Of a stretch of 59,895 nucleotides of DNA, positions 23,155 through 39,344 are shown in pieces. Source of the DNA: a virus. Lineage: Duplodnaviria > Caudoviricetes. Below the pieces are notes generated by a model. It worked only from the letters and a program-made list of their open reading frames with translations. It did no database searches and had not been told where the DNA came from. Location: the IMG/VR virus record IMGVR_UViG_3300011338_000749, positions 1-59,895 of that record. One strand, written 5' to 3'. The position numbers were made by a program, and so were the translations under genes. Numbering within the stretch: the first letter of the stretch is position 1; the number at the start of each line of letters is the position of its first letter.

Positions 23155-23157
23155 GAC

Positions 23158-24955: not shown

Positions 24956-27278
24956 TTTGTGATCCTTGCTGCTGAAGTTTCTGGGTGTCGAGTGCCACTT
25001 TGGCTTTGTCGACCATGAGGTCCCCTTGCAAACGCTGGCCCTCCAGTTGGATGCGGGATTTGTCGTTTGCATCGTCCGCGGCGTCGGCAGTTGCCTTGGC
25101 CTGGATTTCCTGCTCCTTGACCTTGACCAAAGGGTCGTCGGCGGGCGGGCCTTGCAAATCGGTTTGCATTTTCTTAGCTTCTTGGTAGAACTCGGCAACC
25201 TTGATAGCAATCATTGCTTCGCGCTGCAAAGCAGAAACAATGCCTTCTGGGTCTATCCCGTACTGAGTAAACAACTCGGCTTCTGTAGACTCTTCTGCCT
25301 TCAAACGGATGTGCTCAAAGATGTGTTTCTGGATAGTGACCGTGACCTGCGGCATGCTGGCCATTGTTGGAGACAAAGCAAACAACAGGTGGCTCATCAT
25401 GTGGGCGTCATGCTGCTGGCCAGCAAATGCCTTGAGCGGCGAACCGTCCAGCGCCTGCGAGTTCTCGCTGGCCGGGTCCTTGGGCTTGTCTACGTTCTGC
25501 GTATTCAGGATTTGATCGATGTCCCGCACGCCAATGGCTTGGTACATGCGGCGATAGGCCTCGTACATGTTGTGCATCTGTGGATTGCTCTGCGCCAACT
25601 GCAACTGGGTCTGCGCCATGGTGATGCGCTGAGCCACAGAGAAGATGTTGGGGTCAGAGACAGGCAAAACGTCAATGCGGTCATCAAAGTCTTTGCGCTT
25701 GATGGTGCGTGTCTCGCCGGGCACATCGTACGGGTACTCGTCGGGCAGGTACTCCCCAAAACCCTTGGCCAAAAGCTTGAACTCAATCTTCTGGGAGTAG
25801 TGCAAGCGCTTGTGGATGGCGGACATGACCTGGCCGCCCTTTTCCAGCAAAGCAATGGTGGTTCCTACAGCAGCGTTTTGGTTGCTGTCGCCTACCTGCA
25901 TATCGGTGACGCTGGCCAAGCGGCGGCCTGCGTCTGCACAAAAACCTAATAACGCAAACAGCGTCTGGCTTGGCTCCTTGTACGGCAGAGGCATAAGGGT
26001 CTGGCTCAACTCCACGCCGCCAGCATCAATGTCCCGGAACTCGCCCGGCTGCAACGGCACATCGTCATTCATGATGCGCGCGCCCTTGGCCTTGAAGCCC
26101 GCTGGCAGATTGGCCAGCGTACCAGCATCGATCAGTTGGCGCAGCGCGGCAGTGGCCGCTTGGCTCAAGCCTCCAACCAAATGCAAGAAGCCCAAGCCAT
26201 ACGCACCGAGGCCCTGGACCAGCATGTAGTGAACGTAGTACTGCTTGCGGCGGTACAGGTCGTCACCCTCTTTCCAGTTGCGGCGCACGCCCACGGTTGC
26301 GCCAGAGGTTTTGTCAATGGTAATGACATACGGCAGGCGCAATCCTGTTGGCTCGCCATCATCACCTACGTGCTCAAAGCCTGCCAGGTCCCAATCAATC
26401 TGAAACTCCAACAGTTCCATTTCCTCGTCGTCCGCGTTAGGCGACATCTTGGTCACGCGGTCGGTTTCCTTTTGGATGATGTTGTTGCCCATGTCCGCGC
26501 TACTGCGCTCTTGGGCATTGTCCAGATATTGCCCGCGAAGCACGGCCTTGCGGTAGTCGTTCACGGACATTGGAACAACGTGCGTGATCCGAGCGCATTC
26601 GCTCATGACGCTCGAACCGTTGTAGGGAATGTAGAGGTTGTCGGGCAAGATTAGCTTGCTGACCATGCGCTGCTTGTCTTCGTCGTAGTAGACCTTCTTG
26701 AACGCCGAGCCGCCGTAGCCTGTGTAGAACAGAAGCTGGTCAAAGTCGGGCGTGTACTCTTCCATCACGTCCGTAATTTGGTAGTTCATGAAGTCGCGCA
26801 CGCGGTCGGCCTGCATCAACTTTTCGCGTGTCTCCTTGCCCATGACTTGGGTGCGCACAGGGCCCTCGGCAGGCATGAGCTCCTTCAATGCTTGGGCCTG
26901 GAATTGAACAATGGCCTCAGTCAGCAGTGGGTGCGTTGCGGCGGCTGCACCGCGGAACGGTTTGGTGCGCTCATCAAAGGTAAAACCCAAGAGCTTCAGG
27001 CCCTTGCCGTACTGCTCTTCCCAATCCTTACGCGAACCTTGGTCCGCTTCGAACAAAGGCATGAGCTCTGAGCTGATCTGTGCCAAGACTCCAGGGTCGA
27101 GGACCTCGGCCAAGTTGGCATCAAAGGAGACTTCGTCTTCCTCTTCGCCAATTGTTATATCAACGCCGCCTTCGTCGTCAAAGACAATTTCAATGTCAGG
27201 CAGGTTTTCTGTCTCAACGTCTTCAACTTCAACATCCGTATTGCCCGCAGGCAGATCGTTATTTTTTTCGATTGGCAT
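24870..27278 (-). CDS. Portal protein (P22-like)
   Basis: HPLLTEAIVQFQAQA..EL.P; GSAFKKVYYD; LRQLIDAGTLANLPAGFK; Gln-rich C-terminal barrel. Confidence 0.85.
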   Translation of the reverse strand: MPIEKNNDLPAGNTDVEVEDVETENLPDIEIVFDDEGGVDITIGEEEDEVSFDANLAEVLDPGVLAQISSELMPLFEADQGSRKDWEEQYGKGLKLLGFTFDERTKPFRGAAAATHPLLTEAIVQFQAQALKELMPAEGPVRTQVMGKETREKLMQADRVRDFMNYQITDVMEEYTPDFDQLLFYTGYGGSAFKKVYYDEDKQRMVSKLILPDNLYIPYNGSSVMSECARITHVVPMSVNDYRKAVLRGQYLDNAQERSSADMGNNIIQKETDRVTKMSPNADDEEMELLEFQIDWDLAGFEHVGDDGEPTGLRLPYVITIDKTSGATVGVRRNWKEGDDLYRRKQYYVHYMLVQGLGAYGLGFLHLVGGLSQAATAALRQLIDAGTLANLPAGFKAKGARIMNDDVPLQPGEFRDIDAGGVELSQTLMPLPYKEPSQTLFALLGFCADAGRRLASVTDMQVGDSNQNAAVGTTIALLEKGGQVMSAIHKRLHYSQKIEFKLLAKGFGEYLPDEYPYDVPGETRTIKRKDFDDRIDVLPVSDPNIFSVAQRITMAQTQLQLAQSNPQMHNMYEAYRRMYQAIGVRDIDQILNTQNVDKPKDPASENSQALDGSPLKAFAGQQHDAHMMSHLLFALSPTMASMPQVTVTIQKHIFEHIRLKAEESTEAELFTQYGIDPEGIVSALQREAMIAIKVAEFYQEAKKMQTDLQGPPADDPLVKVKEQEIQAKATADAADDANDKSRIQLEGQRLQGDLMVDKAKVALDTQKLQQQGSQNAAQNSQAQQNAQLQALSRAQKSGNPQR

Positions 27279-27287
27279 CTTTGTTCC

Positions 27288-30029
27288 TTATTCGCCGGAA
27301 AGTTTCCACAGGCCGTATTCTTTGTTCCAGTCTACTACCGAGCCCTGTACAGTTTCTCCTGTGGGCGATTTAACGTAACTATTTTGTTTGATAACTTTTA
27401 AACCGTCTTGGCTGTCAACTTTATCAAGCAAATTAAAAATATCATCCCATGTTTTAGAAGGCGGCTCGGAGTTAAAGCGACCTTTAATTTGCGATACATT
27501 CCACGTGTTGCCCTTGCCTGCGTCCGACTTGGCCATCTCAACGGTAACCTTAGGCAAGCCCTGCTCATCTCGCAGAGAGTACACGCGAACCAGTCCTTCG
27601 TCAAAAGCCTTTTTCCCGCCGTACGGCAGACCCGTATAGGCGGTACCGTACGTATCACCAAAGTTGTAATTCCCTATTGAATGATTCATTAGCTTGCCTT
27701 CCATTTCGGTGGCTATTGACTTATCAAGCGTTACCCACTGCCCGCCAAAAGAAGGAGCATCCATTACAGGAGAAGTAAATTTATCAAGAACTTGGCGAGG
27801 AACACTTGCGCCTTTTGCTGCTTGACTAACCGCTGTTAAATAATTGCGGTCCAGAGCCAACGCCTGTGTGCCCTGAATTAAGGCCTCAGGAAAGCTCATG
27901 TTTCCAAGCTTGTTGGCCGGGACTTCTTGCAGCGCCTCAATCACCCTGTCCGGATTAAGTAATGCCATTTCTGGCCTTGCGTCGTATATAGGTTCCCCCG
28001 TGCGCAGCGCCTGCTGAATGTTAGGGGGCATAACTTCTTGGTTGGTATAAAGTCGACGCAGTGTCTCAGACATCAGTGGGTATTCTTCAAACTGACTTGG
28101 TGCAAAATCGCGCATTGTTTCTGGAAGATTGCGCATTTCAACAGGGGCACCTTCTTGGCCTATTTTTTCTGAGATGTTTTTTCTCATCTTATCCAAAAAG
28201 AGGGCGTCTTCAACAGTGTTCCCCTCGGGCCTCAGGGCATACGCCTGCACCCCTGTGCGCTTGTCATAAGCCTTTTCCAAACCTATTTTGTTAGCCAGTT
28301 GGGCTTGGCTATCGCCCTGCATTGCGGCATTATCCAAATAGGGACCAAGCGCGGCAGCATCTTCACCAAAAGGTTCAATCCGGCGGCTGTTTATTGCAAG
28401 GCGCAGCGGATCGTTGGCCGTTCCATATGTATCGGTAAAGTATTTAGGGGCCTTGGCCTCAATGAAATTTTGAATTTCGTCCGATGCATCTGCTTCGCGA
28501 GCCGAGACTTTGTATTGTTGAAACAATTCGCCTAATTTAGAAATAGGTTTGGCCCGGTTTAGGTCCTCCGGGGTGTAGGCAGACGTGCCCCCGCGTGGTT
28601 TGACCGCGTAAGCCAGGTTGCCAGAGGCTTCCATGCGTTGTCGCAACGGGTCATACGCCGTATCAGGGATATTTTCCGCCTGCGCACTCGCACGGCGGAC
28701 CTGTCCGCGCTGAATATTGCCAACAGTCACGTCTTCCAGCATTTTTGCGGCTTTTCCAGTAGCTTCCGCAGCCTTTACAGCACCGCGGACCGGGGCAGCG
28801 GGATTGACAAGGCCTGATCCAAACTGTGTCATCTCATACAAAGCACGGGCCGCAGCCCCTTCTGGGGGTTTCTGGCGTATTCCGGCCTTTAAAGCACGCT
28901 CTTTTAGGTCTTCTGACCCCAAAAACGGCTTTTCATTGGTATAGCCAAAGGGCCGCATAGCCATTGTGGCCAAATCAACAGGGGCTCCAACCAAGTTATA
29001 AGGGGTTTCACTTACTCCCTGCACCGCAGCAGCGTACAGTTCTTCCGGTTTGGTTGAACTTTTGCGGCCAATACCTGATTTTGGTGTCAAAAACGCTGGT
29101 TTTGACGCTGCTTCCAGTTCCTCGGCTGTCGGAGCTTGCTCCCCTGTCTCGGGGGACCCACCAGCGCGGCGGACCATGCCGCCCATAGCCAGCATCTGCG
29201 GTTGCGGGGGCTCGGCAAACGGGGATCGTATTTTGACATCGGCAAACTGAGTAAGGCCCGAGGGCCGCGGTACGGCATCCATCTCTGCCAGATATTTCTC
29301 CGCGACGCCCGGCTCCTTTTCCGTGTCCCGGTTTTCCTTTTCATCGGTATCAGCCAAGAAGGACAGAGCTAGAGCGGCCTGGTAACCCGGGCCGAGGGCC
29401 GCGAGGCGGTCAGGGGCGGCGGGCTGGTTAGGAGTTGTCAAGGATTCGTTGACAACTGGCGCTGCAGCCATGGGCGGCAAAGAAGGAGGGATCGGTTCCC
29501 GCGGCGCGGGGATTGTTTCACGTGAAACATTCGGGGCTGGGGCTGGTGCAACAGGGGCTGGCGTACCGCCCATCTTGGTTTCCAAGGTTGCCATCACCTG
29601 ACCAGAGGTCTTGCCCTTGAGGTTGGGATTATCCCTTATCACCTTCTCTGAAAACAAAGATTCCATGGGCGTGCCGGGTTCGGCAGACAAAAAGCTCTTA
29701 GCTCCTGTGGGACCGAAATAGTGGGCGGCATAGATCTCCGCGGGCCGCGGATCACGCTGCAAGAACTTCTTCAGGTAGTTCGTATTGCTGGAAATGATGT
29801 CCGTGCCCACACGGATGTTCTCATCAGGGTCAAACTTCTTGCCCGGCGCGCCGCCAAATTCTTTCCAAGTCTTATCCACCACCTGAAACAAACCCCCCGC
29901 GCTGGAGGTCTTAGCCTTAGCCGCGGGATCAACAGAGCTTTCCGCGCGCGCAATCCGCAAAGCTATGTCAGGATCAATGCCCTTGGCTTGCGCTGCAGCG
30001 CGGATTTTGTCAATAAGTTCTTGGGCCAT
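27288..30029 (-). CDS. Polyvalent virion protein: N-terminal lytic transglycosylase-like, C-terminal PcfJ-like domain
   Basis: IARAESS.DP.AK..TSSAGGLFQ...TW...YAAH.FG; EGKLMNHSIG.Y...YSLRD..G.P.VTVE...QIKG..N. Confidence 0.7.
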   Translation of the reverse strand: MAQELIDKIRAAAQAKGIDPDIALRIARAESSVDPAAKAKTSSAGGLFQVVDKTWKEFGGAPGKKFDPDENIRVGTDIISSNTNYLKKFLQRDPRPAEIYAAHYFGPTGAKSFLSAEPGTPMESLFSEKVIRDNPNLKGKTSGQVMATLETKMGGTPAPVAPAPAPNVSRETIPAPREPIPPSLPPMAAAPVVNESLTTPNQPAAPDRLAALGPGYQAALALSFLADTDEKENRDTEKEPGVAEKYLAEMDAVPRPSGLTQFADVKIRSPFAEPPQPQMLAMGGMVRRAGGSPETGEQAPTAEELEAASKPAFLTPKSGIGRKSSTKPEELYAAAVQGVSETPYNLVGAPVDLATMAMRPFGYTNEKPFLGSEDLKERALKAGIRQKPPEGAAARALYEMTQFGSGLVNPAAPVRGAVKAAEATGKAAKMLEDVTVGNIQRGQVRRASAQAENIPDTAYDPLRQRMEASGNLAYAVKPRGGTSAYTPEDLNRAKPISKLGELFQQYKVSAREADASDEIQNFIEAKAPKYFTDTYGTANDPLRLAINSRRIEPFGEDAAALGPYLDNAAMQGDSQAQLANKIGLEKAYDKRTGVQAYALRPEGNTVEDALFLDKMRKNISEKIGQEGAPVEMRNLPETMRDFAPSQFEEYPLMSETLRRLYTNQEVMPPNIQQALRTGEPIYDARPEMALLNPDRVIEALQEVPANKLGNMSFPEALIQGTQALALDRNYLTAVSQAAKGASVPRQVLDKFTSPVMDAPSFGGQWVTLDKSIATEMEGKLMNHSIGNYNFGDTYGTAYTGLPYGGKKAFDEGLVRVYSLRDEQGLPKVTVEMAKSDAGKGNTWNVSQIKGRFNSEPPSKTWDDIFNLLDKVDSQDGLKVIKQNSYVKSPTGETVQGSVVDWNKEYGLWKLSGE

Positions 30030-30058
30030 GGTTCGCGGTCCGGGAGAATAGATGGGCC

Positions 30059-30087
30059 ATTTTAGACTGGGTATCAGTAATACTCAA
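30059..30087 (-). promoter_or_regulatory. Putative promoter for 27288..30029
   Basis: TTGAGT-N17-TAAAAT. Confidence 0.35.
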
Positions 30088-31546
30088 CCTCTGCTTGTTC
30101 ATCCGATCCACTGTCTTCCTGATCATCAGAATCCAGAGCAATAAAGTTGCCCTGACGAAATCTTTGCAGAGCCATGGTTGTCACGTCCACTTGGTCATCG
30201 TTGCTGCCGTTGGGGAAAGCAGCGCACTCTTCGACAAGCTCCTCACAGCATTCCATTCCCTCAGGATACCAGACCATGCCCGATTCCAACAGAGGGGCTA
30301 CGGCATTCGCGCGGCTGAGCTTGTCCTGATTCTGCCTGCGGCCACCGGGCGAGAACATCGTGACGGGGATTCCGATCCGGCGGAGTTCCTGCTGGAGTGG
30401 CGTGCCGGTGGCCTTGGCCTCGATCAAGACATTGTCAGGCTTCCAATACTGGTACTCGTCTTTCGCGATCCGCTTGAGCTCAGGAAAATCCCAACGGCCC
30501 TTGCGCACGTTGAGCAAGATGAGGTTGGGGCCCGAGTCAACATCAGGGGTAAACACGCCCCACGTTGCGATGACCGAAAAGTCAGCCGTTTCCTTTTTGC
30601 TGTAGGCCGTGTCCATGGTCTGCAAAAGGTACTCACACTGCGGCGGTTCTGGGTTGGTCCACTTGCGCCACCATGTGCGTTTTAAAACAGCACCTTCATC
30701 GTTCGTGGGTTGTTGCTGCCACTGCGCGTTCCACTTCTTCAGACCAATGGAAACCTTCACCTTCTCCAGTTCGTCGATGGGCCAGTACTCCGGCCAGAGT
30801 GGATTACCGCTTGGGAGAATAGCTGGGAATTCCAAGACCTCCCACTGGTCAGACTTAAGATAGCCCTGCTGTTTCAGCAGGCGGCCAGAGAGGTCATCGG
30901 TCTTCCAACGGGTGTTGATCACAATGATCGCGCCGCCTGGTTGCAATCGCTGGCGAGGGCCAGAGGTGTACCACTCCCACGTGTTCTCCATAGCCGTATC
31001 AGACAAGGCGTCCTGCTCGTCCAAGACGTCGTCCAGCACCACAATATTACCGCCACGCCCGGTCATTGCGCCGCCTTTACCAATGAAAAAGGCTTCACCG
31101 CCTTGGGCCGTGTTCCACCTGCCTGCGGCCTTAGAGTCAATGGACAGGGTCATACCTGGGAAGAGATCCTTGTATCTCTCTTCATTTACAAGATTACGAA
31201 TCATGCGCCCGAAGCGCTGAGCGAGGTCCGAGGTGTGCGAGCCAATGACAATCTTAGAGTCAGGCTTTTTACCCATCATGTAGGCAGGGAACAGATAGCT
31301 GCCCATCTGGGATTTACCATGACGGGGAGGCATCGCGATCATCAGACGCTTGCACTCGCCACTCACTACGCGGTCCAAGGCTTTAGCGATGATCCTGTGG
31401 TGTTCCCCAACGAGCATCTCGGGCCAGACGTATCGACAGAAGTCAAGAAAGCCCGTGGTTGCCTTTTCGTGCGCATCGAGTAATTGCAGACGGAGCTGCA
31501 ACCGCATCATTTCTTCTTCGGCGTCTTTTGGAGGTGGGGTGTGCAT
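30074..31546 (-). CDS. terL: Terminase large subunit
   Basis: MPPRHGKS Walker A, VVLDD Walker B, TRW..DDL.G, DTAYS...D.S, IEAKATG, FPNG.NDDQVD nuclease motif. Confidence 0.95.
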   Translation of the reverse strand: MHTPPPKDAEEEMMRLQLRLQLLDAHEKATTGFLDFCRYVWPEMLVGEHHRIIAKALDRVVSGECKRLMIAMPPRHGKSQMGSYLFPAYMMGKKPDSKIVIGSHTSDLAQRFGRMIRNLVNEERYKDLFPGMTLSIDSKAAGRWNTAQGGEAFFIGKGGAMTGRGGNIVVLDDVLDEQDALSDTAMENTWEWYTSGPRQRLQPGGAIIVINTRWKTDDLSGRLLKQQGYLKSDQWEVLEFPAILPSGNPLWPEYWPIDELEKVKVSIGLKKWNAQWQQQPTNDEGAVLKRTWWRKWTNPEPPQCEYLLQTMDTAYSKKETADFSVIATWGVFTPDVDSGPNLILLNVRKGRWDFPELKRIAKDEYQYWKPDNVLIEAKATGTPLQQELRRIGIPVTMFSPGGRRQNQDKLSRANAVAPLLESGMVWYPEGMECCEELVEECAAFPNGSNDDQVDVTTMALQRFRQGNFIALDSDDQEDSGSDEQAEVEYY

Positions 31547-31967
31547 AGGGCCAGGTTTTGAATTTTGTAAATATTAACCGAGGTTTTGATTTATGCAAAC
31601 AAGGGGCCTGTTTTAGGGGGTGGGGGTCCAAGTCTCTTGGGCAAATTGTGGGGATAAAATCAGGGTACGCCTCTTCGCTGTAGCTGACGGGCTGTTTATG
31701 GCCCTCCCCCTGTCTTAAAGTCAAAGGTACGTAGTAGCACAGAGAGGTATGCGGGCCCACCCACCCCCGCCAACCACCTATAGAGGGAAAAATTGAGAGA
31801 AACTATCGGCGGCGCGCCGCCGATAGGCATAGCCTATTGCCATAGCTATAGGCTATCAGCTATCAGGGCCTAGGCCCTGATAGGCACTAGCTATGCTGCC
31901 AGTTGTCAAGCTAAATATATCTATCGGGGCTGACGTCCCGATAGGCCCGGGCTATGCACCTGGCCAC

Positions 31968-31999
31968 AAAAAAGCCCCGGGGCTTGCGGCCCGGGGCTT
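31968..31999 (-). terminator. Rho-independent terminator ending the leftward early genes
   Basis: AAGCCCCGGG-loop-CCCGGGGCTTTTTT. Confidence 0.85.
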
Positions 32000-32015
32000 G
32001 CGTCTGGGTTACTGG

Positions 32016-32297
32016 TTAGCTGGCCACTGCCGCCTCTACTGCCTTGCGTGCTTCGTACTCTTCGCGTGACTTGGTTGCCCGGGCTTTGGCCTCTGACTTG
32101 GTGACCAAGTCCTGCTCACCGATGCTGATCTGTGCACCATTGCAAGCATAGAACTGGCTTTCCTCTTGGCCATAGCAATACTCGTAATCTATCTTGGTCA
32201 GTGTGACCAAGAACCCGGCCAGGGCTTGGACGTCTTTAACAGCCATACCCTCAGGCAATGCATATTTGCTACCGTCGATTGTGATGATCTTCGTCAT
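32016..32297 (-). CDS. Early hypothetical protein
   Basis: Start ATG 32297 after AGAAAGAAGAAAG; has its own -10 TATAAT at 32353-32348. Confidence 0.75.
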   Translation of the reverse strand: MTKIITIDGSKYALPEGMAVKDVQALAGFLVTLTKIDYEYCYGQEESQFYACNGAQISIGEQDLVTKSEAKARATKSREEYEARKAVEAAVAS

Positions 32298-32353
32298 GAT
32301 GCTTTCTTCTTTCTGGGTTGTACTGTGCATGATTGCACAGTGAGACTATTATA
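32298..32353 (-). promoter_or_regulatory. Early promoter -10 plus hairpin leader
   Basis: TATAAT-N6-ACTGTGCA-ATCA-TGCACAGT-ACAACCCAGAAAG; -35 is weak. Confidence 0.55.
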
Positions 32354-32638
32354 GCCCCGGCCCCGCGGCCCGGGCCATTGTACTTTTCTATCGCGCCGGG
32401 CGGCCCGATAGCCGTGGGCCACGGCCCACGGCGCACGATTTATGCGCCATATGCCCGGCGCGCGCAAGGATCTTGCGCGCGCCCCGGGTTTCACGCACCG
32501 CGCGCCACGGTTTAAGCGCCAACAGGCGAGGACCGGGGAGCTGGTTTAGCTATGCAAAAAATAACCGGTCAGTTATGCCATTTTGCTATATCCGGCCCCT
32601 CGATAGGGCCACGCTATCGGCGGCCCTTGATCGATAGG

Positions 32639-33598
32639 TTAAGCACTTAGCAGTTCTAACGCCCTATTTTTGAGTGCTGCGCCAGTTCCAAACCATGCCG
32701 ATTCCATGCGGGTATTGTTGCCACGGCCCCGCTCATGATCGACTAGTTCAGTGACAGCATTAAGCATTGCCCAGCGCGTACCGGCCACGCCGGGAATGTC
32801 CGCACCGATAGCTTGGCCGTTGAATAAATCCATAATCCGGCGATATCCACGGGTTTCATTCAAGTCTAATTTGCTGGTGTGGAAAGGAAGCAGCAGCGCA
32901 GTAATAAATATATCGGCCTCAATCCGGCTCATGGTTTCACCGGACAATTTGCGAGACTGGACTAGAAAGCGCTCCCAGTTATCGCCCACAATGCCAAGCT
33001 CTAACCGGACAGCATCAGGGTTGAAGCGCTCACTATGCAGCACTCGCACAGTGCCTGAATTCTCACGATTTAAAGCTGCCGTTATGGTGTTATTGCATAC
33101 CACGCGAATCGATGTAAATTTCGCAACGGTGGCCATAGTTCCATCATATGACGTGCCAAGCAACACATAAGGCCGCACAGTGTCGCCCTCGACAATGTCG
33201 GCCCCCTCGTTTACTTTCGCCAGCGCCCAAACCCGGCGGCCATGGCTGAGCACTCCGGCGGTTTCCATTTGAAACCCGCCTAGCTCAACAAGCTTCCCAA
33301 AAAAGCCCATAACTTCGGAGGGTTGAACCACGCGGTAACCGTCAGACACTACAGCCAGCGCGCCGCCGGTATCCGAACGGTGCAATACTTTCCGGCCCTT
33401 GAATTCCTCCGGCGCTGTCGTTGCGTCAGTCTGAAACAGAACGGGGGATTCGTTCACGGTGTAATTTAATCCGGCTTCACGTGTCCACGTCTCAATTGAT
33501 GCATCAGGTGTCAAGGCTTGGCCCAAACCATGCCATGGGGTATTACCAGCGTAAGCAATAGCGGCGGTGCCGGTGGTGGTGTCGATCATATGTGCCAT
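32639..33598 (-). CDS. DUF932/DUF945 (TIGR03299-like) phage/plasmid protein
   Basis: PWHGLG; Y.VVQ; METAG.L..GRRVWALA; TSYDGT; RVVCNNT; GT.W..LNAVTE.VDH. Confidence 0.85.
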   Translation of the reverse strand: MAHMIDTTTGTAAIAYAGNTPWHGLGQALTPDASIETWTREAGLNYTVNESPVLFQTDATTAPEEFKGRKVLHRSDTGGALAVVSDGYRVVQPSEVMGFFGKLVELGGFQMETAGVLSHGRRVWALAKVNEGADIVEGDTVRPYVLLGTSYDGTMATVAKFTSIRVVCNNTITAALNRENSGTVRVLHSERFNPDAVRLELGIVGDNWERFLVQSRKLSGETMSRIEADIFITALLLPFHTSKLDLNETRGYRRIMDLFNGQAIGADIPGVAGTRWAMLNAVTELVDHERGRGNNTRMESAWFGTGAALKNRALELLSA

Positions 33599-33670
33599 TT
33601 TCTCTATCCTTTCAGTGTTGCCGGATGATCCCGGTGAATGAATTATAAACCATAATTAACAGTCTGGCTA
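33599..33670 (-). promoter_or_regulatory. Early sigma70 promoter and leader
   Basis: TAGCCA-N17-TATAAT; CCGG hairpin; GAAAGGATAGAG before ATG. Confidence 0.7.
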
Positions 33671-33726
33671 ATCCCCTTCAAATAAGTCAACTATTAGCCA
33701 CAGTATTAGAAATACCCCTAGGGCTA

Positions 33727-34431
33727 TCAACATGCAGACATCTCCCGGCCAACATCTCCGGCCACATGATGGCGCAACATGGAACCGGGCGGCAGCGAGC
33801 GAGCGAATTTAACAATGGCTTGCGGATCATTCGGCGCGCCGGTTTTTTTGGTGCCGTGCCACTGGATGGCGGTCGGACCACTGGCCGCATAACAGCCGCC
33901 TTTCTCGTCAGTACCGACGCGTTTAGCGCCACTGCCATGGGCCACAAAAACAACAACATAATCCCGGTCACCACGTGCGCACAATGGGCGGCCATTTCCA
34001 CACTGATGGCACGTGAACGACTCGGACAGCTCAGCCGGGCATTGTGCAAACCTAACGCCACGGTGCACCATGGGGAAACTATCGGCCATGGTTTTCGGGG
34101 CAGCATACACCGCCGGGCGGCCTAACTCGATAGCCCGGACAGCGTCGGCCATAGTGTCGCATGACACATTGAACACGGTTTTACCCGGTGCCGGTAGTGG
34201 TAAAGCTTCAGCCGCAAAATGCGAATAAGTCCAAGCTTGGCCATTACGCGGTACAGCAGCAGACACTGCGGCCAAATAATCCATGTCAATTAATGAAGTG
34301 CCGGTTTCACTTTTGGGGTGCAATTTGCACGTTGTAGGACACGTGCCATAGGTTTCGTGCTCCCCTGCGCGATAGGTTACAGCGATGGGGCCAGTTTTAC
34401 GATTGGCCGATACGGTGACGGTTTTAAGCAT
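33727..34431 (-). CDS. Cys-rich gp88-like early protein
   Basis: Start ATG 34431; N.KTGPI.VT..TCP..C; WTYSH; CPA...TC.QC....LC....V.F.AHG. Confidence 0.7.
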   Translation of the reverse strand: MLKTVTVSANRKTGPIAVTYRAGEHETYGTCPTTCKLHPKSETGTSLIDMDYLAAVSAAVPRNGQAWTYSHFAAEALPLPAPGKTVFNVSCDTMADAVRAIELGRPAVYAAPKTMADSFPMVHRGVRFAQCPAELSESFTCHQCGNGRPLCARGDRDYVVVFVAHGSGAKRVGTDEKGGCYAASGPTAIQWHGTKKTGAPNDPQAIVKFARSLPPGSMLRHHVAGDVGREMSAC

Positions 34432-34504
34432 TTTCTCTATCCTTTCTAGGTTGCCGGAAATGCTCCGGTTCCACCAGTATACACTTAAATTAACAGTGGC
34501 GCAA
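34432..34504 (-). promoter_or_regulatory. Early sigma70 promoter and leader
   Basis: TTGCGC-N17-TATACT; CCGG hairpin; GAAAGGATAGAG before ATG. Confidence 0.7.
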
Positions 34505-34505
34505 C

Positions 34506-34928
34506 TTATTTTATAGGGGTTTTCCCCGATAAGATGTCGGCCAGCTCCTGCCATGGCATGCCCCGGCTAGGCCACGCGGCCACGGGATCAAGGCGCAAGC
34601 CCTGCTCAGCAAGGTCAATTGCTTGGCGGCCATGGTACAAAGCAATTCGGCCCGGGCGAACAACGGTGCTGATCTGATGCACCAGCACATAACACGGGCG
34701 GCCATGGGCGGCATGGCGCGCTAGGAAAGCAATCTGATGCGGTCGAAGCGCGATTTTCAGCCCGCGAGAAACGGCCTTAAGCTCGATTGAGACAAAGCGG
34801 TCACCTGCACCCACCAGCATGTCAGACACGCCCAAATTAACGCGATTCTCAATCCGCTCGGTGTCTACCCCCAAGGGACGCAAGCCATCGCGAACACGGG
34901 CAGCAAAGGCAGCCTCAGGCGTCGACAT
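34506..34928 (-). CDS. PD-(D/E)xK nuclease, Holliday-resolvase/VRR-NUC-like
   Basis: Start ATG 34928; PE..F; RIEN....GVSD; IELK; LRPHQIAF. Confidence 0.75.
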   Translation of the reverse strand: MSTPEAAFAARVRDGLRPLGVDTERIENRVNLGVSDMLVGAGDRFVSIELKAVSRGLKIALRPHQIAFLARHAAHGRPCYVLVHQISTVVRPGRIALYHGRQAIDLAEQGLRLDPVAAWPSRGMPWQELADILSGKTPIK

Positions 34929-35595
34929 CGTCGCCGGGTTCCAGATCACTGTCCCGTTCAAAGATATCGGGCGGAGGTTCCGCCACAGGAGGAACAAAAA
35001 CGGGGTCTTTTTCACGGTCAATGCTTTCAATCACTTGGCCGGTGCTGGCGTCAATCAGCGCGCTCGGCGGTGGTCCACCATACAGGGCCTTGAGCTCGTC
35101 CAGCTTGCGCTGCACTTCTTCTTTCGACATTGAGTCAATCGTGCCGTGCCTGATCTCCTTGCGGTCGATATAAATTGATCCTAAGGCCTGTCCACGGCGA
35201 TATTCGGCCTGGACGGCAGCAGCATATGCCCCCGCTTCTAAGGCCTTGTCACGGATGAGCTGCAGGTCCTTCATGTGGCGCTCGTACGAAGTGTTGTACT
35301 TGCTGTTGAGCTCGGCCCGATAGGCCTGAATCGCGGCCACCACATGAGGGTTGACGTTGGGGCTCGTCAACTTATTCGCCATGACAGAGGCGCTCGTGGG
35401 TTTATACCCTGCCCGAATGGCGGCCTCCTTCATGGTGACGCGGCCATCGCCGCTCACCAGCTCGGTGACGAACTTCCACTCCTTGGCGTTCAAGACCTTT
35501 CTCTGCTTGCGCAGCGGGGCCACTTCTGTCGCAAGGCGCTTTTGCGCCTTATCCCCAATGACAGGAGGCACCATCCAAACATCGCGCCGGGTCAT
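34915..35595 (-). CDS. terS: Terminase small subunit
   Basis: L..KE.KFV.E.....EAAIRAGY...A...A.KL HTH; L..IRDKA...Y.AAV.AE..RG. Confidence 0.7.
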   Translation of the reverse strand: MTRRDVWMVPPVIGDKAQKRLATEVAPLRKQRKVLNAKEWKFVTELVSGDGRVTMKEAAIRAGYKPTSASVMANKLTSPNVNPHVVAAIQAYRAELNSKYNTSYERHMKDLQLIRDKALEAGAYAAAVQAEYRRGQALGSIYIDRKEIRHGTIDSMSKEEVQRKLDELKALYGGPPPSALIDASTGQVIESIDREKDPVFVPPVAEPPPDIFERDSDLEPGDDVDA

Positions 35596-35807
35596 GAGAG
35601 TCTCCACAGCCGCCAGCCGCCTTCTACGCGGCGCAGCTTGAACGTCCACTCAGGAGCATGCGTTCTAACAAACCGCAAAGCAGCGACGCGCGAACTGTTG
35701 GCCTGTCTTGAATCAACAAAGCGAATTGAATCCCCAGGCAGCATGTCGCCAAAGGGGTACTTTGTACGCCCCACGGGCATCTCTACCCCCGACTCAATCT
35801 GAAACAT
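35592..35807 (-). CDS. Small protein (YPF..M..GD family)
   Basis: Start ATG 35807 with AGGAG; KYPFGDMLPGDS...GWRLWR. Confidence 0.7.
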   Translation of the reverse strand: MFQIESGVEMPVGRTKYPFGDMLPGDSIRFVDSRQANSSRVAALRFVRTHAPEWTFKLRRVEGGWRLWRLS

Positions 35808-35856
35808 CTGTTCGCTCCTGTAATCCATTGAATTAAGTGTATCAGGAGCAAGGCAA

Positions 35857-36069
35857 TCAGGCAACCCGAATAATGCGCCAGCCGTGGTCTACCCGGAGTT
35901 TTGCAAATTTTCTGCGGGGGTTGACCTTGGAATGATGCCGGGCAGAGTTGTATGCGCTTTTGGCCACCTCATAGATCGTGACCAAGAAATAGTCGCCAAC
36001 GGACATCGTATAAAACGGGTATTGAAACCTGATGCCCGTTACCGGGAACAGGATGTGATCTGGGATCAT
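35857..36069 (-). CDS. Small protein, paralog of 35592..35807
   Basis: AGGAGG SD; QYPFYTMSVGDYF...GWRIIR. Confidence 0.7.
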   Translation of the reverse strand: MIPDHILFPVTGIRFQYPFYTMSVGDYFLVTIYEVAKSAYNSARHHSKVNPRRKFAKLRVDHGWRIIRVA

Positions 36070-36077
36070 GGAACCTC

Positions 36078-36287
36078 CTATAAGAATCTACGTACTAAAA
36101 AATAAAAAAGTTTTTTCAAAAAGCATCTCGCGGAACCCCCCTGTAAATTCCTTACAGCTATAACTTGACGTAATGTACTGTGTTCAACTAAGTCGTTGAT
36201 TTTACTCACTTATTACGCTTCACACCAAATTACGTACAAATGGTTTTGAAAAAACAAAAACACTCAATAGTACGGAGACCTCTATAG
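36078..36287. other. Candidate replication origin: imperfect ~48-bp inverted repeat flanking an IHF-consensus site
   Basis: Arms CTATA-N8-CGTACTA-N12-GTTTTTTCAAAA at 36078-36126 and 36240-36287 (reverse); AATCAACGACTTA at 36201-36189; AT-rich; at the strand switch. Confidence 0.55.
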
Positions 36288-36349
36288 AGCGGCCCTTGAA
36301 TCCACCCTTTCACCGGGTAAACCCCTACAAAATAAACCACTTTTTGTAC

Positions 36350-36420
36350 TTGCCATCCAAACACAGTACGACTTATAATCTTTTCACACATCCCGTGTAA
36401 CTCAAGAAAGGATAGAGCAA
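36350..36420 (+). promoter_or_regulatory. Early rightward promoter and leader
   Basis: TTGCCA-N18-TATAAT; ACAC/GTGT hairpin; GAAAGGATAGAG before ATG 36421. Confidence 0.7.
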
Positions 36421-36657
36421 ATGACTGTAAATAATGAGAACATCCACGATCTGATCCACGACTCGGCAGGCCATGCCACCGAGCTCCTGACCCACATGTC
36501 TTCCTTGACCGAGGACCCCGTAACAGCAGTCATTTCCCTGATGCTGGCCACCGCCGTCTTTGCCCGGTCCATGGACCTGCCCCTTGACGTCCTCCTAGGT
36601 GGCATAGAAGCCGCCTCCACTTCAATCCAGGAGGCTACCCACCATGCAGCCCACTAA
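36421..36657 (+). CDS. Early hypothetical protein
   Basis: First gene after the promoter, with SD. Confidence 0.7.
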   Translation: MTVNNENIHDLIHDSAGHATELLTHMSSLTEDPVTAVISLMLATAVFARSMDLPLDVLLGGIEAASTSIQEATHHAAH

Positions 36658-36868
36658 ACGCCTTGTAGGCCCCTCTGATGGCCCCAACCACTATCCTGTC
36701 CCGCCGTACGACACGGGCAAGGTCAAGATTGGCCTGTACTACACCCGGCCCTCCAACTGGTCCGCGAGCCGCGATTCATTGCTCTTGCAATCCGCCCTCC
36801 TGTCCACCCCCGCGAACCGTCCCTCTTTACTCGACCGCCTGATCACCTTTTTCCGGAGCCTTGCATGA
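36644..36868 (+). CDS. Early hypothetical protein
   Basis: AGGAGG SD; PYDTGKVKIGLYY motif. Confidence 0.7.
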   Translation: MQPTKRLVGPSDGPNHYPVPPYDTGKVKIGLYYTRPSNWSASRDSLLLQSALLSTPANRPSLLDRLITFFRSLA

Positions 36869-37158
36869 CCCCCATGACTAATCATTCCAAGGAAGGCCTG
36901 TTGGCCTTTGACTACGACTGCGACGAGCTCAACAGCACTTTGACCTGCTGGTTTGAGTACGAAGCCGCGGAGCGCGGTTCTCGGGAACCTTTGACCGGCT
37001 TGCAACTCGAGCCTGACTATCCGTCCACCTTGACGCTGCACCACGTCTACCTGCCCGGCTCCAACGTCGACATCGCTCCCCTGCTGTCCTTTGAGGTGGT
37101 GGCGGAGATTGAAACGTGGGTCGCGGACCAATTTGCTGGCCACTCGGAGGACTATTGA
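36865..37158 (+). CDS. Early hypothetical protein
   Basis: ATGA coupling; L.CWFEYE.AE.GS.E..TG...EPDYP. Confidence 0.7.
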   Translation: MTPMTNHSKEGLLAFDYDCDELNSTLTCWFEYEAAERGSREPLTGLQLEPDYPSTLTLHHVYLPGSNVDIAPLLSFEVVAEIETWVADQFAGHSEDY

Positions 37159-37159
37159 C

Positions 37160-37351
37160 ATGCTCAAAGACGAAATAAATCAAGTTTCGCGCAAATTTTT
37201 GCGCGAAACCTTCTTGGCAAGCTCACAAACCTACTGTTACTGCGGCGACGAGCAGACCAGCATTGGTTGCTGTAGCGAAAACCATTTTCAAACCTTTGCC
37301 GAAATGGACAAGCGCACGCAAGAAGAGTTTTTGGATGGGGAAATGCCGTGA
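37160..37351 (+). CDS. Small Cys-containing protein
   Basis: GGAGG SD then ATG 37160; YCYCGD....GCCSENHF. Confidence 0.65.
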   Translation: MLKDEINQVSRKFLRETFLASSQTYCYCGDEQTSIGCCSENHFQTFAEMDKRTQEEFLDGEMP

Positions 37352-37461
37352 TCTTAGACCTCCTCACCCTGTTCCTTATCCTGTCCGGCGCGCTGGCATG
37401 GTTTTTATTTTTCTGCTTTTATCTTTATATCTGGCTGACACAGTTAAGGGGGAAGAAATGA
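37348..37461 (+). CDS. 37-aa membrane peptide
   Basis: GTGA/ATGA coupled on both sides; MILDLLTLFLILSGALAWFLFFCFYLYIWLTQLRGKK. Confidence 0.55.
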   Translation: MILDLLTLFLILSGALAWFLFFCFYLYIWLTQLRGKK

Positions 37462-37745
37462 AACCAACACCCGGCCCTTGGAGGGCAGTAGGCGGCGCGA
37501 TTCGTCCTGAAAGCGCGAAAGGCTATACAGGCGGTTACGCGCCAATACTTGCAGCGCACCACGACAAGAGACTACCCGACAACCGCGAGGCAAATGCAAA
37601 GCTGGCTGCTGCTGCACCTGAACTACTTGAAGCCTTGCAGTGGTTGATGCGGCAAGTACCCGAGCCGAGCCTACCCGGAGACTACACAACGGGGTATCTG
37701 GCTGCGAAGGCAGCGATACACAAAGCTACTGGGAGTTTTAAATGA
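37458..37745 (+). CDS. Phage hypothetical protein (TPGPW...ANA.L.AAAPELLEAL family)
   Basis: Characteristic motifs; start ATG 37458. Confidence 0.75.
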   Translation: MKPTPGPWRAVGGAIRPESAKGYTGGYAPILAAHHDKRLPDNREANAKLAAAAPELLEALQWLMRQVPEPSLPGDYTTGYLAAKAAIHKATGSFK

Positions 37746-37984
37746 ACAGAGAAGACATTATTAAACTGATTGAAGACAATGGGTTGACTTTGCATGGAGA
37801 CATTGAGCATTTCGCCGCCCTCGTCGCCGAGCATGTTTACACCAAATATTTAGAACCACCTGCTCCAAGATTGACAGGTACGTTTTCAATCACTGCGGCG
37901 GGAAAGTTTAAATGTACAGGTTGCACAGGTACATGGGCAGACCGTGAAGATGCCAAACACCATTCATGTAAGGAATACCAATGA
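37742..37984 (+). CDS. Early hypothetical protein with CxxC/HxxC
   Basis: MNREDII...HFAALVA; ATGA coupling. Confidence 0.65.
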   Translation: MNREDIIKLIEDNGLTLHGDIEHFAALVAEHVYTKYLEPPAPRLTGTFSITAAGKFKCTGCTGTWADREDAKHHSCKEYQ

Positions 37985-38238
37985 CATATACAGAAGACCT
38001 GATTTTTAGACTGCGCGACACCGCCAGCCGGGGCGTATCAAGCTGGGGCGATTTGCAGCAAGAGGCTGCTGATGAGCTTGAAACGCTGATGAAGGCTGTA
38101 GCCGCAGAGCGCGAGGCGTGTGCGAAGCTGTGTGATGAATACGCGAACGGGCTAAAGCGCAACTTTTCCGAGATCATCGCTGACGCTATCCGAGCAAAGG
38201 GACAAGCCAGCCACCCAAGGGGGGAAATGAATGAGTGA
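37981..38238 (+). CDS. Early hypothetical protein
   Basis: EAADELE; AEREACAKLCD...AIRA motif. Confidence 0.7.
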   Translation: MTYTEDLIFRLRDTASRGVSSWGDLQQEAADELETLMKAVAAEREACAKLCDEYANGLKRNFSEIIADAIRAKGQASHPRGEMNE

Positions 38239-38422
38239 AGGACACCCAAAATTAACAGTGATCCCCTCATCTAACCAAAAAGCAATGGGGCAAGACCTGA
38301 TGGATAAATTGCGCGAAGTTATCAACGCGCCCGAGTATAACCACATGGCTACTGCAACCGTAATTGGCGTTTTAGAAATGACAAAACTGCATTATTGGCA
38401 ATGTAATTTAACAGAGGATTGA
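38231..38422 (+). CDS. Early hypothetical protein
   Basis: Coupled small ORF; ATVIGVLEMTK. Confidence 0.6.
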   Translation: MSEGHPKLTVIPSSNQKAMGQDLMDKLREVINAPEYNHMATATVIGVLEMTKLHYWQCNLTED

Positions 38423-38423
38423 T

Positions 38424-38744
38424 ATGACAAAAGAAACAGCAGCATTGAAGTTGGCGCTTGAGGCGTTAAAAGAAGCCCAAACAAATGGCGATGGGATGGA
38501 AAAGTGGGATAGAAATAAAAAAGCCATCACCGCCATCAAAGAAGCCTTGGCACAGCCAGAGCAGACACCATACATAACCACACCGACATCAACTCCGATG
38601 TGGACTATCCCACCACAGCGCAAGCCGCTGACGGATGAGGAGATTATTTTGATTGTGGCTGATTGCGCATCTTCTCATCAGCACACGGACATTCACTTTG
38701 CCCGAGCCATCGAAGCCGCACACGGCATTAAGGGGTTAATATGA
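38424..38744 (+). CDS. Early hypothetical protein
   Basis: LKLALEAL...AITAIKEALAQ...PLTDEEI...FARAIEAAHGI. Confidence 0.7.
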   Translation: MTKETAALKLALEALKEAQTNGDGMEKWDRNKKAITAIKEALAQPEQTPYITTPTSTPMWTIPPQRKPLTDEEIILIVADCASSHQHTDIHFARAIEAAHGIKGLI

Positions 38745-39186: not shown

Positions 39187-39344
39187 CTAAATTTGGAGAC
39201 GCACCGATAAAAAGGGAGGGCGACACCGTTGACCCTGATGAATGTACATGGGAGTGCGACTGCGAGAAATGCCAAGCCAAGTACAACCAGTGGAAAGAGG
39301 CTTTTGATGCCCAACAGAAACAATACGAGGAGAAGAACACATGA
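39183..39344 (+). CDS. 53-aa CxCxxC protein
   Basis: Manual translation MTKFGDAPIKREG...ECDCEKCQAKYNQWK; ATGA coupled at both ends. Confidence 0.6.
   Translation: MTKFGDAPIKREGDTVDPDECTWECDCEKCQAKYNQWKEAFDAQQKQYEEKNT

Follow-up and report, generated by a model that had tools for sequence, protein, structure and literature searches.

Conserved 24-bp dyads ahead of the terminase gene of uncultured freshwater phages look like regulatory parts of small promoter cassettes

Described phage elements and their likeness to the dyad units

PeSL units of T4-type phages consist, according to the accessible parts of two reports (PMC2839356, PMC4122927), of a stop codon, an AT-rich tract, a sigma-70-like promoter, a GC-rich stem-loop, a ribosome-binding site and a start codon, and the stem-loop is located upstream of, inside or after the promoter. 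The available text of the former report (PMC2839356) describes the cassettes as a promoter, an AT-rich tract and a stem-loop in variable positions with flanking ORFans. These units are concentrated in a variable region rich in small orphan genes just before the late virion genes, where insertions and deletions occur by cassette exchange (accessible parts of PMC2839356 and PMC4122927). In P2-like phages, Ogr/delta sites of the form TGT-N12-ACA are centred about -55 (PMC3931495 and PMC3152322, in the parts available), and late activators of the RinA and Alt types have their binding sites ahead of terS (PMC3152322, likewise).

The window, i.e. the whole 59,895-bp stretch of phage DNA analysed here, carries an array of CTATC-N14-GATAG dyads between its DUF932 and TerL genes. 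The nearest named relatives of this ~60-kb genome are DSL-LC04 and HTVC023P-type pelagiphages, and such dyads are unmentioned in the titles and abstracts of the papers found on DSL-LC04 and HTVC023P. The dyads look like regulatory stem-loop or operator parts of cassettes ahead of the terminase gene, not like a DNA-packaging site. We favour, at about an even chance, the interpretation that they are an operator-like upstream element of clade-specific small promoter cassettes between TerS and TerL. On our best reading, by analogy, this cassette family resembles the T4-type PeSLs, and the dyad spacer often doubles as a stem-loop.

The likeness to PeSLs extends to a sigma-70-like promoter in the unit (41 of 93 dyads), an AT-rich tract upstream of the -35, a stable GC-rich stem-loop, and a location in a variable orphan-gene region with cassette exchange. 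In contrast to PeSLs, the dyads do not vary in their 5-bp arms, in their length of 24 nt or in their distance to the -35, and the same arms and spacing are also found around cores that do not pair, a feature that the accessible parts of the PeSL reports (PMC2839356, PMC4122927) do not describe. The phage group is also unrelated, with ~60-kb genomes that are not of T4 type, and the promoter and terminator activities of the dyad units are predicted. With the P2 Ogr/delta sites, as far as the available text describes them, the dyads share a spaced inverted repeat 55-60 bp upstream of the predicted start, an imperfect -35, and a confinement to few promoters that head late genes. They differ in their consensus, CTATCG-N12-CGATAG, in a core that is often a stable hairpin, and in an activation role that is putative. 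The RinA/Alt systems, to judge from the same partial source, are comparable in phage-encoded control of a terminase and morphogenesis operon, putative in our case, with sites just upstream of the terminase genes. However, those systems belong to phages of Gram-positive hosts and have a single regulated promoter, whereas the dyad sites recur at several junctions.

Anatomy of the dyad region

All genes of the dyad region are located on the minus strand, and the features below are described in this direction unless stated otherwise. The exact pattern CTATC-N14-GATAG occurs five times in the 59,895 bp versus 0.01 expected from an exact pattern count, with starts at 31803, 31860, 31921, 32388 and 32614, all inside 31803-32637, and none of 100 shuffled sequences reached five copies. 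These are the positions given by the initial annotation, whose further observations were reproduced as well: dyads 1 and 2 are palindromic over all 24 nt, dyads 1 to 3 start 57 and 61 bp apart, and on the plus strand each of these three is followed by GC-N4-(C/G)CTAT(T)GC, with like words near 32549 and 32572. A scan of spacings k = 0-40 across the genome yielded more than one match at k = 14 alone, the lone match at k = 21 (31853) being an overlap with dyad 2, and the array proved unique to this spacing and to 31803-32637. When one or two mismatches were allowed, the 11 further matches in the window were at chance level (16 in total versus 11.7 expected). The annotated location upstream of TerL (30074-31546; phrog_38, E = 6.5e-115) holds on the minus strand and not otherwise. 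The span is not entirely noncoding, as a conserved small gene, p104, sits between dyads 3 and 4. The cores had been called free; this had to be revised, since four of the five are self-complementary, with RNA folds of -12.1 to -17.4 kcal/mol and z-scores of -2.7 to -5.4.

Dyad 1 is separated from the TerL start codon by a conserved noncoding leader (31547..31784) that shows long invariant G-rich and C-rich blocks in an alignment of 12 relatives. The same alignment provided no RNA structure for this leader, covariation being near zero and double changes being found in 4 of 27 predicted pairs of a highly conserved sequence. In L023 an additional gene is inserted between the leader and TerL. Word enrichment near the leader was dominated by TAG-containing words, such as any noncoding DNA gains.

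An intrinsic terminator is a GC-rich hairpin followed immediately by a U-run on the transcribed strand. Dyad 1 (31803..31826), the final hairpin before the TerL leader, resembles such a Rho-independent terminator in its 10-bp GC-rich stem, its tetraloop and its T-rich tail (31785..31802). Its RNA fold amounts to -17.2 kcal/mol (z -3.9), and it was terminator-like in a terminator scan of the minus strand, which was passed by dyads 1 and 3 and not by dyads 2, 4 and 5, after which a T-run is absent. Unlike in a Rho-independent terminator, an A-rich tract comes after dyad 4 and after 36 of the 93 copies collected from relatives; in these 36, five or more of the following 8 nt are A. An equivalent hairpin with the same T-rich tract as at dyad 1 is present in six relatives (L006, L008, L009, L010, L014, L023); the hairpins at this site have unrelated arms in L008, L014 and L023, and L010 carries CTATC-N13-GATAG.

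The ATAG/CTAT words beside dyads 1 to 3 (31827..31957) read ATAG-N7-CTAT in gene direction and overlap the left arm of each of these dyads, and CATAGC-type words are found ahead of the last dyads of four relatives (L009, L095, L099, L126). Dyad 2 (31860..31883), without a neighbouring promoter or T-run, folds at -17.4 kcal/mol (z -5.4) and is common to the window and L006, where position 6 is a G-T pair. Dyad 3 (31921..31944) has an 8-bp stem (-12.1 kcal/mol) and is followed by 11 A/T-rich nucleotides and a -35-like TTGACA (31904..31909), after which no convincing -10 was found, the best candidate being GCCTAT with a score of 8/12. The same arrangement, a dyad, 11 nt and TTGAC(A/T), forms the last dyad before TerL in seven relatives, and with a 10-nt gap in an eighth, L110. 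The tandem trio of dyads 1 to 3 is limited to the window and L006. Upstream of it lies the canonical intrinsic terminator of p104 (31966..31999), with a 10-bp GC stem, a T run and a fold of -23.6 kcal/mol.

The gene p104 (32016..32297) encodes 93 aa from the ATG at 32297, which is probably the true start rather than 32330, the end of the listed ORF (32016-32330). It has tblastn matches in most relatives and gave a 38-sequence alignment. Its structure was predicted with a pLDDT of 91, the first 12 residues of the long form being disordered. Neither a fold match (best E = 0.6) nor a Pfam or PHROG family was found, and p104 was not supported as the dyad binder, since the confident model has no fold relative and no family. 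The p104 promoter (32348..32377, score 9/12) consists of a -10 TATAAT (32348-32353), an 18-nt GC-rich spacer and a weak -35 TGGCCC (32372-32377); a separate promoter scan of 31300-32900 listed no promoter, this one included. A 5'-leader hairpin (32322..32341) at the predicted transcript start has a base, CACTG...CAGT, that is constant and a top that varies among relatives. Dyad 4 (32388..32411; -14.1 kcal/mol) lies 10 nt upstream of the -35, separated from it by an A-rich tract (32378..32387). From the dyad-to--10 spacing, we infer that it would span about -70 to -47 of the p104 promoter, with its centre at about -58.5. This context is repeated in seven relatives (among them L006, L009, L023 and L037), and hairpins unrelated to the dyad occupy the site in L008 and L010. 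In the window, the full promoter is found at dyad 4 only; dyads 1, 2 and 5 are without a promoter.

About 200 nt of noncoding DNA (32412..32613) with GC-rich hairpins and CCACGG/CCGTGG words follow, a stretch that is also noncoding in relatives and has as its equivalent in DSL-LC04 a 700-bp repeat-rich stretch. The hairpin CGATAG-N7-CTATCG (32601..32619), detected at 32602 in an inverted-order scan with k = 7, has one arm in common with dyad 5 and is kept in L009, L010 and L023 (one arm change). Dyad 5 (32614..32637) begins 1 nt past the DUF932 stop codon. Its core is non-pairing (-4.1 kcal/mol, z -0.4), and its site is retained in L009 and L023. No Rfam family reached the gathering score in the whole window, the matches in 31400-32750 being far sub-threshold and at chance level, and no tRNA was found in the window. 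The listed sequencing runs that carry this sequence are all represented by assembled contigs, none of them from RNA. Compared over 22001-42000, contigs of the runs X1, X2 and X7 extend across the dyad region, which speaks neither for nor against genome ends there, and the X5 assembly is interrupted at the leader hairpin (32324-32344).

Distribution, core pairing and promoter register of the dyads

Equivalent dyads were found across the phage clade in the TerS-to-TerL interval. Of 50 IMG/VR contigs with the consensus hairpin CTATCGGGGC-N4-GCCCCGATAG, 49 are relatives with homologues of TerS, DUF7227, DUF932, p104 or TerL, and this 20-nt consensus is retained exactly in contigs whose TerL is 57-58% identical. 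A REP-like, multi-copy occurrence of the consensus hairpin was not found in a bacterial collection with one genome per species; the 8 matches in this collection are single-copy and 3 of them are this phage binned in MAGs, therefore it is not a host repeat. The exact motif clusters in the TerS-to-TerL interval in the window (5 of 5) and in G002 (2 of 2), as does CTATY-N14-RATAG in G006 (5 of 5), G008 (3 of 3) and G007 (3 of 4). All 93 distinct copies, taken from 133 loci, are located between a point upstream of TerS and the TerL start, and most relatives have 1-3 copies. Four complete relatives (G003, G004, G005, G010) lack exact CTATC arms, and no exact dyad exists in L008 or L014, with a TerS identity of 94% (fragment) and 82%, respectively. 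DSL-LC04 has no such dyads and carries an intergenic repeat of another kind, of the TGTTTGTA/TACAAACA type. As judged from these sequence comparisons, the dyads are real and conserved within a group of uncultured freshwater phages. The region itself is variable: the gap from DUF932 to TerL ranges from 753 to 3008 bp among relatives. The window and L006 differ by a 1033-bp block with two ORFs, whose breakpoints fall in a shared 16-nt promoter core (32338-32353), a single case.

Changes on both sides were found at all five inner pairs among 57 unique 24-mers, filling 41 cells versus 15.0 +/- 3.1 in shuffled data (0 of 500 as high), and at least 4 of the 5 inner pairs are formed in 68 of the 93 copies. 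Both the covariation and the pairing share are inflated, because it was the paired consensus that served to retrieve 50 of the loci. With a matrix trained on sequences beside exact dyads, a scan anchored on the A-tract and -35 returned 147 contexts, in 94 of which YDATB-N14-VATHR stands just upstream (background 0.0005). Among these, 28 of the 36 exact dyads have at least 4 of 5 inner pairs, versus 10 of the 58 non-exact ones; the other 48 have 3 or fewer, as do 21 of the 57 unique exact dyads. The promoter-anchored search also revealed several arm variants, of the CTATC, TAATC, CAATC and CTATT types. G-T (14) and A-C (18) mismatches show no strand bias and therefore give no proof that RNA pairs on the gene strand. 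At one and the same site, loops occur in both orientations, TCGC in L035 versus GCGA in L037 and L069.

The promoters of the 41 linked copies score at least 8/12 and lie within 40 nt in gene direction, versus 3 of 93 on the opposite side. The -35 is located at +10/11 in 27 of the 41 and at +8 to +12 in 35. In the first 35 contexts, a score of at least 9 was reached in 9 sense versus 1 antisense positions, with a background of 1.2%. The 10 nt after the dyad contain on average 6.7 A/T versus 4.3 on the other side. A T-rich tail, defined as 5 or more T among the following 8 nt, follows 14 of the 93 copies alone, therefore most dyads cannot be classical terminators. Almost half of the copies (44 of 92) begin within 30 nt of a stop codon.

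Possible functions of the dyads

A typical unit opens with the stop codon of the preceding gene, followed by the 24-bp dyad CTATCG-N12-CGATAG and a 10-11-nt A/T-rich tract. Next come a -35-like hexamer and a -10, separated by 16-18 nt that often form a GC palindrome, and the unit closes with a leader hairpin, the ribosome-binding site and the start codon. The sequences show the anatomy, the conservation, the promoter register and the covariation of the dyads; for protein binding, the sign of regulation and termination we infer the following. On the DNA level, a putative dimeric regulator, most simply phage-encoded, would bind both arms, centred near -58.5, and time the expression of the TerS-to-TerL module. 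The 14-nt spacer would not be read by this regulator and may in many copies have become GC-rich and self-complementary. Read-through RNA of such a dyad would fold into a 10-bp stem with a tetraloop, which may attenuate or end read-through and cap the 3' end of the upstream message. Dyad 1 with its T-rich tail would then be an ordinary intrinsic terminator shielding the TerL leader, and dyads 1 to 3 together with the p104 terminator may form an insulator stack ahead of the operon for packaging and structure. Recognition by a dimeric protein, as put forward in the initial annotation, is indirectly supported, as the arms and the 14-nt spacing outlast the pairing of the core; the three functions it named, a packaging platform for TerS, a recombination array or a decoy, were not supported.

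A transcription factor was not evident in Pfam and PHROG searches of 56 distinct ORFs, and among the phage ORFs searched there was neither a family match to an Ogr-like protein nor a RinA/Alt homologue. The only plausible match of a zinc-finger search, an ORF with a CxxC-N20-CxxC pattern (18163-18495), was considered as an Ogr-like protein and set aside, as it lies in the structural block and matches an unnamed PHROG only.

Purely structural elements are the first alternative, unlikely though it is. The dyads would act only as folded RNA, as attenuators, terminators or 3'-end protectors like the PeSL stem-loop, and the constant arms would reflect common descent and copying between cassettes, with no protein involved. 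The strong folds of four of the five dyads, the covariation, the vicinity to stop codons and the T-rich tail of dyad 1 are in agreement with this, and PeSL stem-loops have been shown to terminate, according to the accessible part of PMC2839356. Furthermore, close relatives (L008, L010, L014, L023) carry unrelated hairpins at the dyad positions; these relatives can thus do without a specific factor at such sites, in keeping with a role as structure alone. However, arms and spacing persist in the many copies with 3 or fewer inner pairs, and the A/T-rich base of the stem, expected to be the least constrained part, is the most conserved. The fixed register to the -35, the small number of T-rich tails and the exact retention of the 20-nt consensus at 57-58% TerL identity also argue against it.

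A doubtful extension of the operator reading is a dual use of the dyads, in which a clade-specific protein would read the constant 5-6-bp base and the fixed geometry either as a B-DNA operator at about -58 or as a hairpin or cruciform with a 10-bp stem and a tetraloop. A single 24-nt element would thus govern the promoter at the DNA level and halt read-through once transcribed, and the dyad stack would gate the packaging and structural operon. As a bold further step, by analogy to the logic of attC and REP elements, the folded form would additionally mark the boundary of a cassette in a structure-specific manner.

We regard it as improbable that the dyads are recombination or structure-specific sites, i.e. 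attC- or REP-like folded DNA that shuffles cassettes, or origin iterons. Constant arms with variable self-complementary cores, the small variable genes flanked by the dyads in a region whose length varies 4-fold, and the loops in both orientations at one site would fit such a role. However, the sole mapped insertion or deletion breaks in the shared -10 core of the promoter, outside the dyads, and integrases, transposases or HUH proteins were not found among the ORFs searched with Pfam and PHROG, both of which also set the dyads apart from integron attC sites. The fixed 24-nt length and the many non-pairing copies point in the same direction, and the GC-skew minimum, at 36-38 kb, is located away from the dyads.

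The R sites of lambda cosB are short TerS recognition repeats near the terminase genes. That the dyads are TerS recognition sites of this or a pac type, marking terminase assembly, is quite improbable. They are restricted to the terminase neighbourhood in every genome examined, repeated symmetric sites suit an oligomeric binder, and a TerS-like gene with weak family matches (phrog_51, E = 3.5e-9; Pfam Terminase_2 below cut-off) lies 3 kb upstream. In contrast to cosB R sites, the dyads are tied to sigma-70-like promoters in a fixed register and orientation that have no role in packaging, and are scattered in relatives over 4-5 kb of intergenic junctions, some upstream of TerS. In addition, the exact form is missing from close relatives, namely the four complete genomes, L008 and L014, and the adjacent invariant TerL leader is a more plausible site of this kind. 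The promoter register, the scatter, the missing arms and the break in the promoter core weigh against all three functions named earlier. A decoy array that titrates a host DNA-binding protein, suggested by three tandem copies without promoters of their own, is barely credible, because the consensus hairpin is not repeated in any scanned bacterial genome, 1-3 copies in most relatives are too few for titration, and the tandem trio is limited to two genomes.

The preferred reading, that of an operator-like element of promoter cassettes, provides a first sketch of a regulatory grammar for widespread uncultured ~60-kb freshwater phages that are distant kin of HTVC023P-type pelagiphages. This grammar would be a modular promoter cassette in which a conserved dyad lies upstream, the spacer is GC-palindromic and the leader contains a hairpin, and it suggests the conversion of an operator into a terminator via a self-complementary, unread spacer. 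In practice, annotation of the dyads as a pac or cos site should be avoided. If the reading is true, a module-specific regulator of the clade awaits discovery, and the cassettes would explain the gain and loss of small accessory genes just ahead of the terminase gene.

Five dyads in the junctions between TerS and TerL

The initial annotation described an array of inverted repeats upstream of TerL, and its counts hold: five copies of CTATC-N14-GATAG, starting at 31803, 31860, 31921, 32388 and 32614 (dyads 1 to 5), compare with 0.01 expected. Across spacings of 0-40 nt, only N14 matched more than once, and arms relaxed by one or two mismatches gave extra matches at chance level only. The palindromic dyads 1 and 2, the steps of 57 and 61 bp and the GC-N4-GCTATGC-like words were likewise found as described. 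Contrary to the initial statement, the span is not wholly noncoding, since a conserved small gene (p104) lies between dyads 3 and 4. Nor are the cores free: as RNA, dyads 1 to 4 form tetraloop-capped stems of 8-10 bp, with folding energies from -12.1 to -17.4 kcal/mol and z from -2.7 to -5.4; dyad 5, at -4.1 kcal/mol and z -0.4, forms no such stem.

The window comprises an entire IMG/VR virus record of 59,895 bp, linear and with a CheckV estimate of 96%. All genes surrounding the dyads are on the minus strand, namely those for a weakly matching TerS-like protein (34915-35649), a DUF7227 protein (33727-34554), a DUF932 protein (32639-33598), p104 (32016-32330 in the ORF listing) and TerL (30074-31546; phrog_38, E = 6.5e-115). 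Farther along, a DNA polymerase, helicases, a primase and several HNH endonucleases are encoded; neither an RNA polymerase nor an integrase was recognised among the window's genes. Among named phages, the metagenome-assembled DSL-LC04 (TerL 63% identical) and HTVC023P-type pelagiphages (about 50-55%) come closest. The clade contigs L138, L141 and L143 occur in MAGs labelled Rhodoferax sp., Verrucomicrobiota bacterium and Burkholderiaceae bacterium, a binning that weakly hints at a freshwater betaproteobacterial host.

Three other regions of the window deserve mention. Immediately upstream of the TerS-like gene, two neighbouring small ORFs of 70 and 90 aa (35592-36069, minus strand) look like paralogues by sequence; a family search with them gave only a faint DUF7303 match. 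Three successive genes at 47393-49061 match families named after cyanophage Pam3 (gp34-like, gp33-like (DUF7307) and gp32-like). The region 38000-39350, with small plus-strand ORFs, yielded many short contigs with dozens of alternative joints and loose ends in each of the four sequencing runs compared with it. Summed depth there is up to 801 versus about 78 elsewhere in run X5, and the region has the appearance of a population hotspot with multiple alleles or recombination.

In gene direction, dyad 5 starts 1 base past the DUF932 stop codon and one of its arms also belongs to another small hairpin, CGATAG-N7-CTATCG. Dyads 5 and 4 are separated by about 200 nt of noncoding, GC-rich DNA. This stretch (32412-32613) is dense in CCACGG/CCGTGG-type words and GC hairpins; the equivalent 700 bp of DSL-LC04 (L005 5294-5994) are densely packed with GGCCCGTGG-like repeats. 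The promoter-linked repeat of that phage is a different one (TGTTTGTA/TACAAACA). The noncoding stretch may be an iteron-like region. Downstream of dyad 4 are an A-rich tract of 10 nt, a weak -35 (TGGCCC), a GC-rich spacer of 18 nt and a perfect TATAAT; a leader hairpin, a ribosome-binding site rich in purines and p104 come next. Translation of p104 probably starts at the ATG at 32297; a longer reading begins within the leader hairpin, and its 11 additional residues are disordered in the structure model. After the canonical terminator at the p104 3'-end come dyad 3, with 11 A/T-rich nt, TTGACA and no convincing -10, dyad 2, lacking both promoter and T-run, and dyad 1 with a T-rich tail. An automated scan rated dyads 1 and 3 terminator-like on the minus strand, and another found no promoter in 31300-32900; promoter calls throughout are consensus matches only. 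Small-gene promoters of the clade carry two more hairpins with constant base and variable top (32322-32341; L006, L008, L010, L014): one, TTGACAC...GTG, occupies the spacer between -35 and -10 ahead of TATAAT, and the other, CACTG...CAGT, is placed where the transcript is predicted to begin.

Distribution and promoter register

In eighty loci around TerL homologues, exact dyads numbered 34 with N14 and 4 with N13; other spacings were nearly absent. Scanning IMG/VR with the commonest form, CTATCGGGGC-N4-GCCCCGATAG, gave 50 contigs, 49 of which had homologues of the TerS/DUF7227/DUF932/p104/TerL block; they include members with TerL only 57-58% identical. In bacterial genomes (one per species) the same query gave 8 single matches, 3 being this phage binned into MAGs; the dyad is therefore no host repeat. 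Clustering within 4-5 kb was found for the exact motif in the window (5/5) and the related genome G002 (2/2), and for CTATY-N14-RATAG in G006 (5/5), G008 (3/3) and G007 (3/4). The exact form is absent from four complete relatives.

All 93 distinct copies from 133 clade loci lie between the region upstream of TerS and the TerL start. The dominant layout is the previous stop codon (within 30 nt of the dyad start in 44 of 92 copies), the dyad, 10-11 A/T-rich nt, a -35-like hexamer (TTGGAC, TTAGCC or TTGACA), 16-18 nt that are frequently a GC palindrome, and a -10. At a score threshold of 8 of 12 and a distance of up to 40 nt, 41/93 copies had a promoter in gene direction, the -35 lying at +10 or +11 in 27 and at +8 to +12 in 35 of these 41; only 3/93 had one on the opposite side, at scattered offsets. 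The dyad would thereby sit at about -70 to -47 relative to the transcript start. A T-rich tail follows 14/93 copies and an A-rich one 36/93; hence most cannot be classical terminators.

A packaging platform for TerS, as initially suggested, is unlikely: the dyads keep this register to promoters, they are scattered over several junctions, and relatives whose TerS is nearly identical lack the exact form. Assembled contigs bridge the dyad region, an observation silent on genome ends. A recombination-site or decoy array finds little support.

For a late promoter/activator region or packaging signal, the noncoding TerL leader of about 240 nt, from dyad 1 to the TerL start codon (31547-31784, minus strand), is a stronger candidate than the dyads. 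Its sequence is strongly conserved in 12 relatives, includes invariant blocks rich in G or in C and shows almost no covariation; no Shine-Dalgarno sequence is evident at the TerL start. An additional gene is inserted between leader and TerL in L023, and the first leader block is present twice in L073. Just downstream of TerL, a 913-aa SLT-domain gene contains a perfect 16-bp palindrome, TGTTTCACGTGAAACA (29514-29529), which we take to match the canonical chromosomal parS consensus. The exact 16-mer is at the same place in 25 of 75 loci reaching 2.5 kb past TerL, window included, and three relatives have a second copy (upstream in L014 and L048, nearby in L064).

Signals of stem and arms

Both the pairing stem and the arms leave a signal. 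Among 57 unique 24-mers, each of the five inner pairs varied on both sides, and the cells with such changes numbered 41 versus 15.0 +/- 3.1 in shuffles (0 of 500 reached 41). Three or fewer inner pairs were found in 21 of the 57, and mismatches had no strand bias (G-T 14 versus A-C 18). This set is skewed towards pairing, as the paired consensus itself had served to retrieve 50 loci; a second scan was therefore anchored on the A-tract/-35 alone. Of its 147 distinct contexts, 94 had a looser dyad of equal length, YDATB-N14-VATHR, directly upstream (background 0.0005), with the palindromic consensus CTATCG-N12-CGATAG and AT dinucleotides 73-80% conserved. Most exact dyads pair (28/36), and most non-exact ones do not (10/58 pair). 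Arm variants are often symmetric (TAATC...GATTA, CAATC...GATTG, CTATT...AATAG). Since the arms are conserved and the spacing and -35 distance fixed with or without a stem, these patterns point to recognition by a dimeric DNA-binding protein.

A purely structural stem-loop is a serious rival. In close relatives, unrelated hairpins occupy the dyad 1 site, namely in L008, L014 and L023 and the dyad 4 site in L008 and L010, the latter having an N13 form at the dyad 1 site; judged by these alignments, what persists there is the stem-loop as such. No candidate regulator emerged from family searches of the ORFs, a zinc-finger search or a p104 fold search. We infer protein binding, the sign of regulation and termination at the dyads from sequence patterns.

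A proposed PeSL-like cassette element

The gap between DUF932 and TerL genes varies from 753 to 3008 bp across relatives, the 1096 bp of the window being the shortest among those in IMG/VR. From its closest relative (L006) the window differs by a 1033-bp block of two ORFs, the one insertion/deletion mapped, and the two alignments both extend across a 16-nt promoter core (32338-32353) common to the flanking cassettes. This is the pattern reported for PeSL cassettes in T4-type phages (PMC2839356). Such cassettes combine a sigma-70 promoter with an AT-rich tract and with a GC-rich stem-loop whose position varies; situated between the orphan genes of hyperplastic regions, they bring about modular shuffling and protect the late genes downstream (PMC2839356, PMC4122927). 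In contrast, the present clade is unrelated, and its stem-loop has invariant arms and fixed geometry, which give it the look of an operator. The placement is also similar to that of P2 Ogr sites, inverted repeats centred at about -55 (PMC3152322, PMC3931495), and of the sites upstream of terS bound by the activators RinA and Alt (PMC3152322).

The simplest reconciliation of arm and stem signals would be an operator whose unread spacer has repeatedly turned self-complementary, so that the element may fold also in the upstream transcript. The p104 terminator and dyads 3, 2 and 1 would then form a stack insulating the TerL leader. Our interpretation is that the dyads form the upstream part of putative PeSL-like cassettes in an unrelated phage clade.
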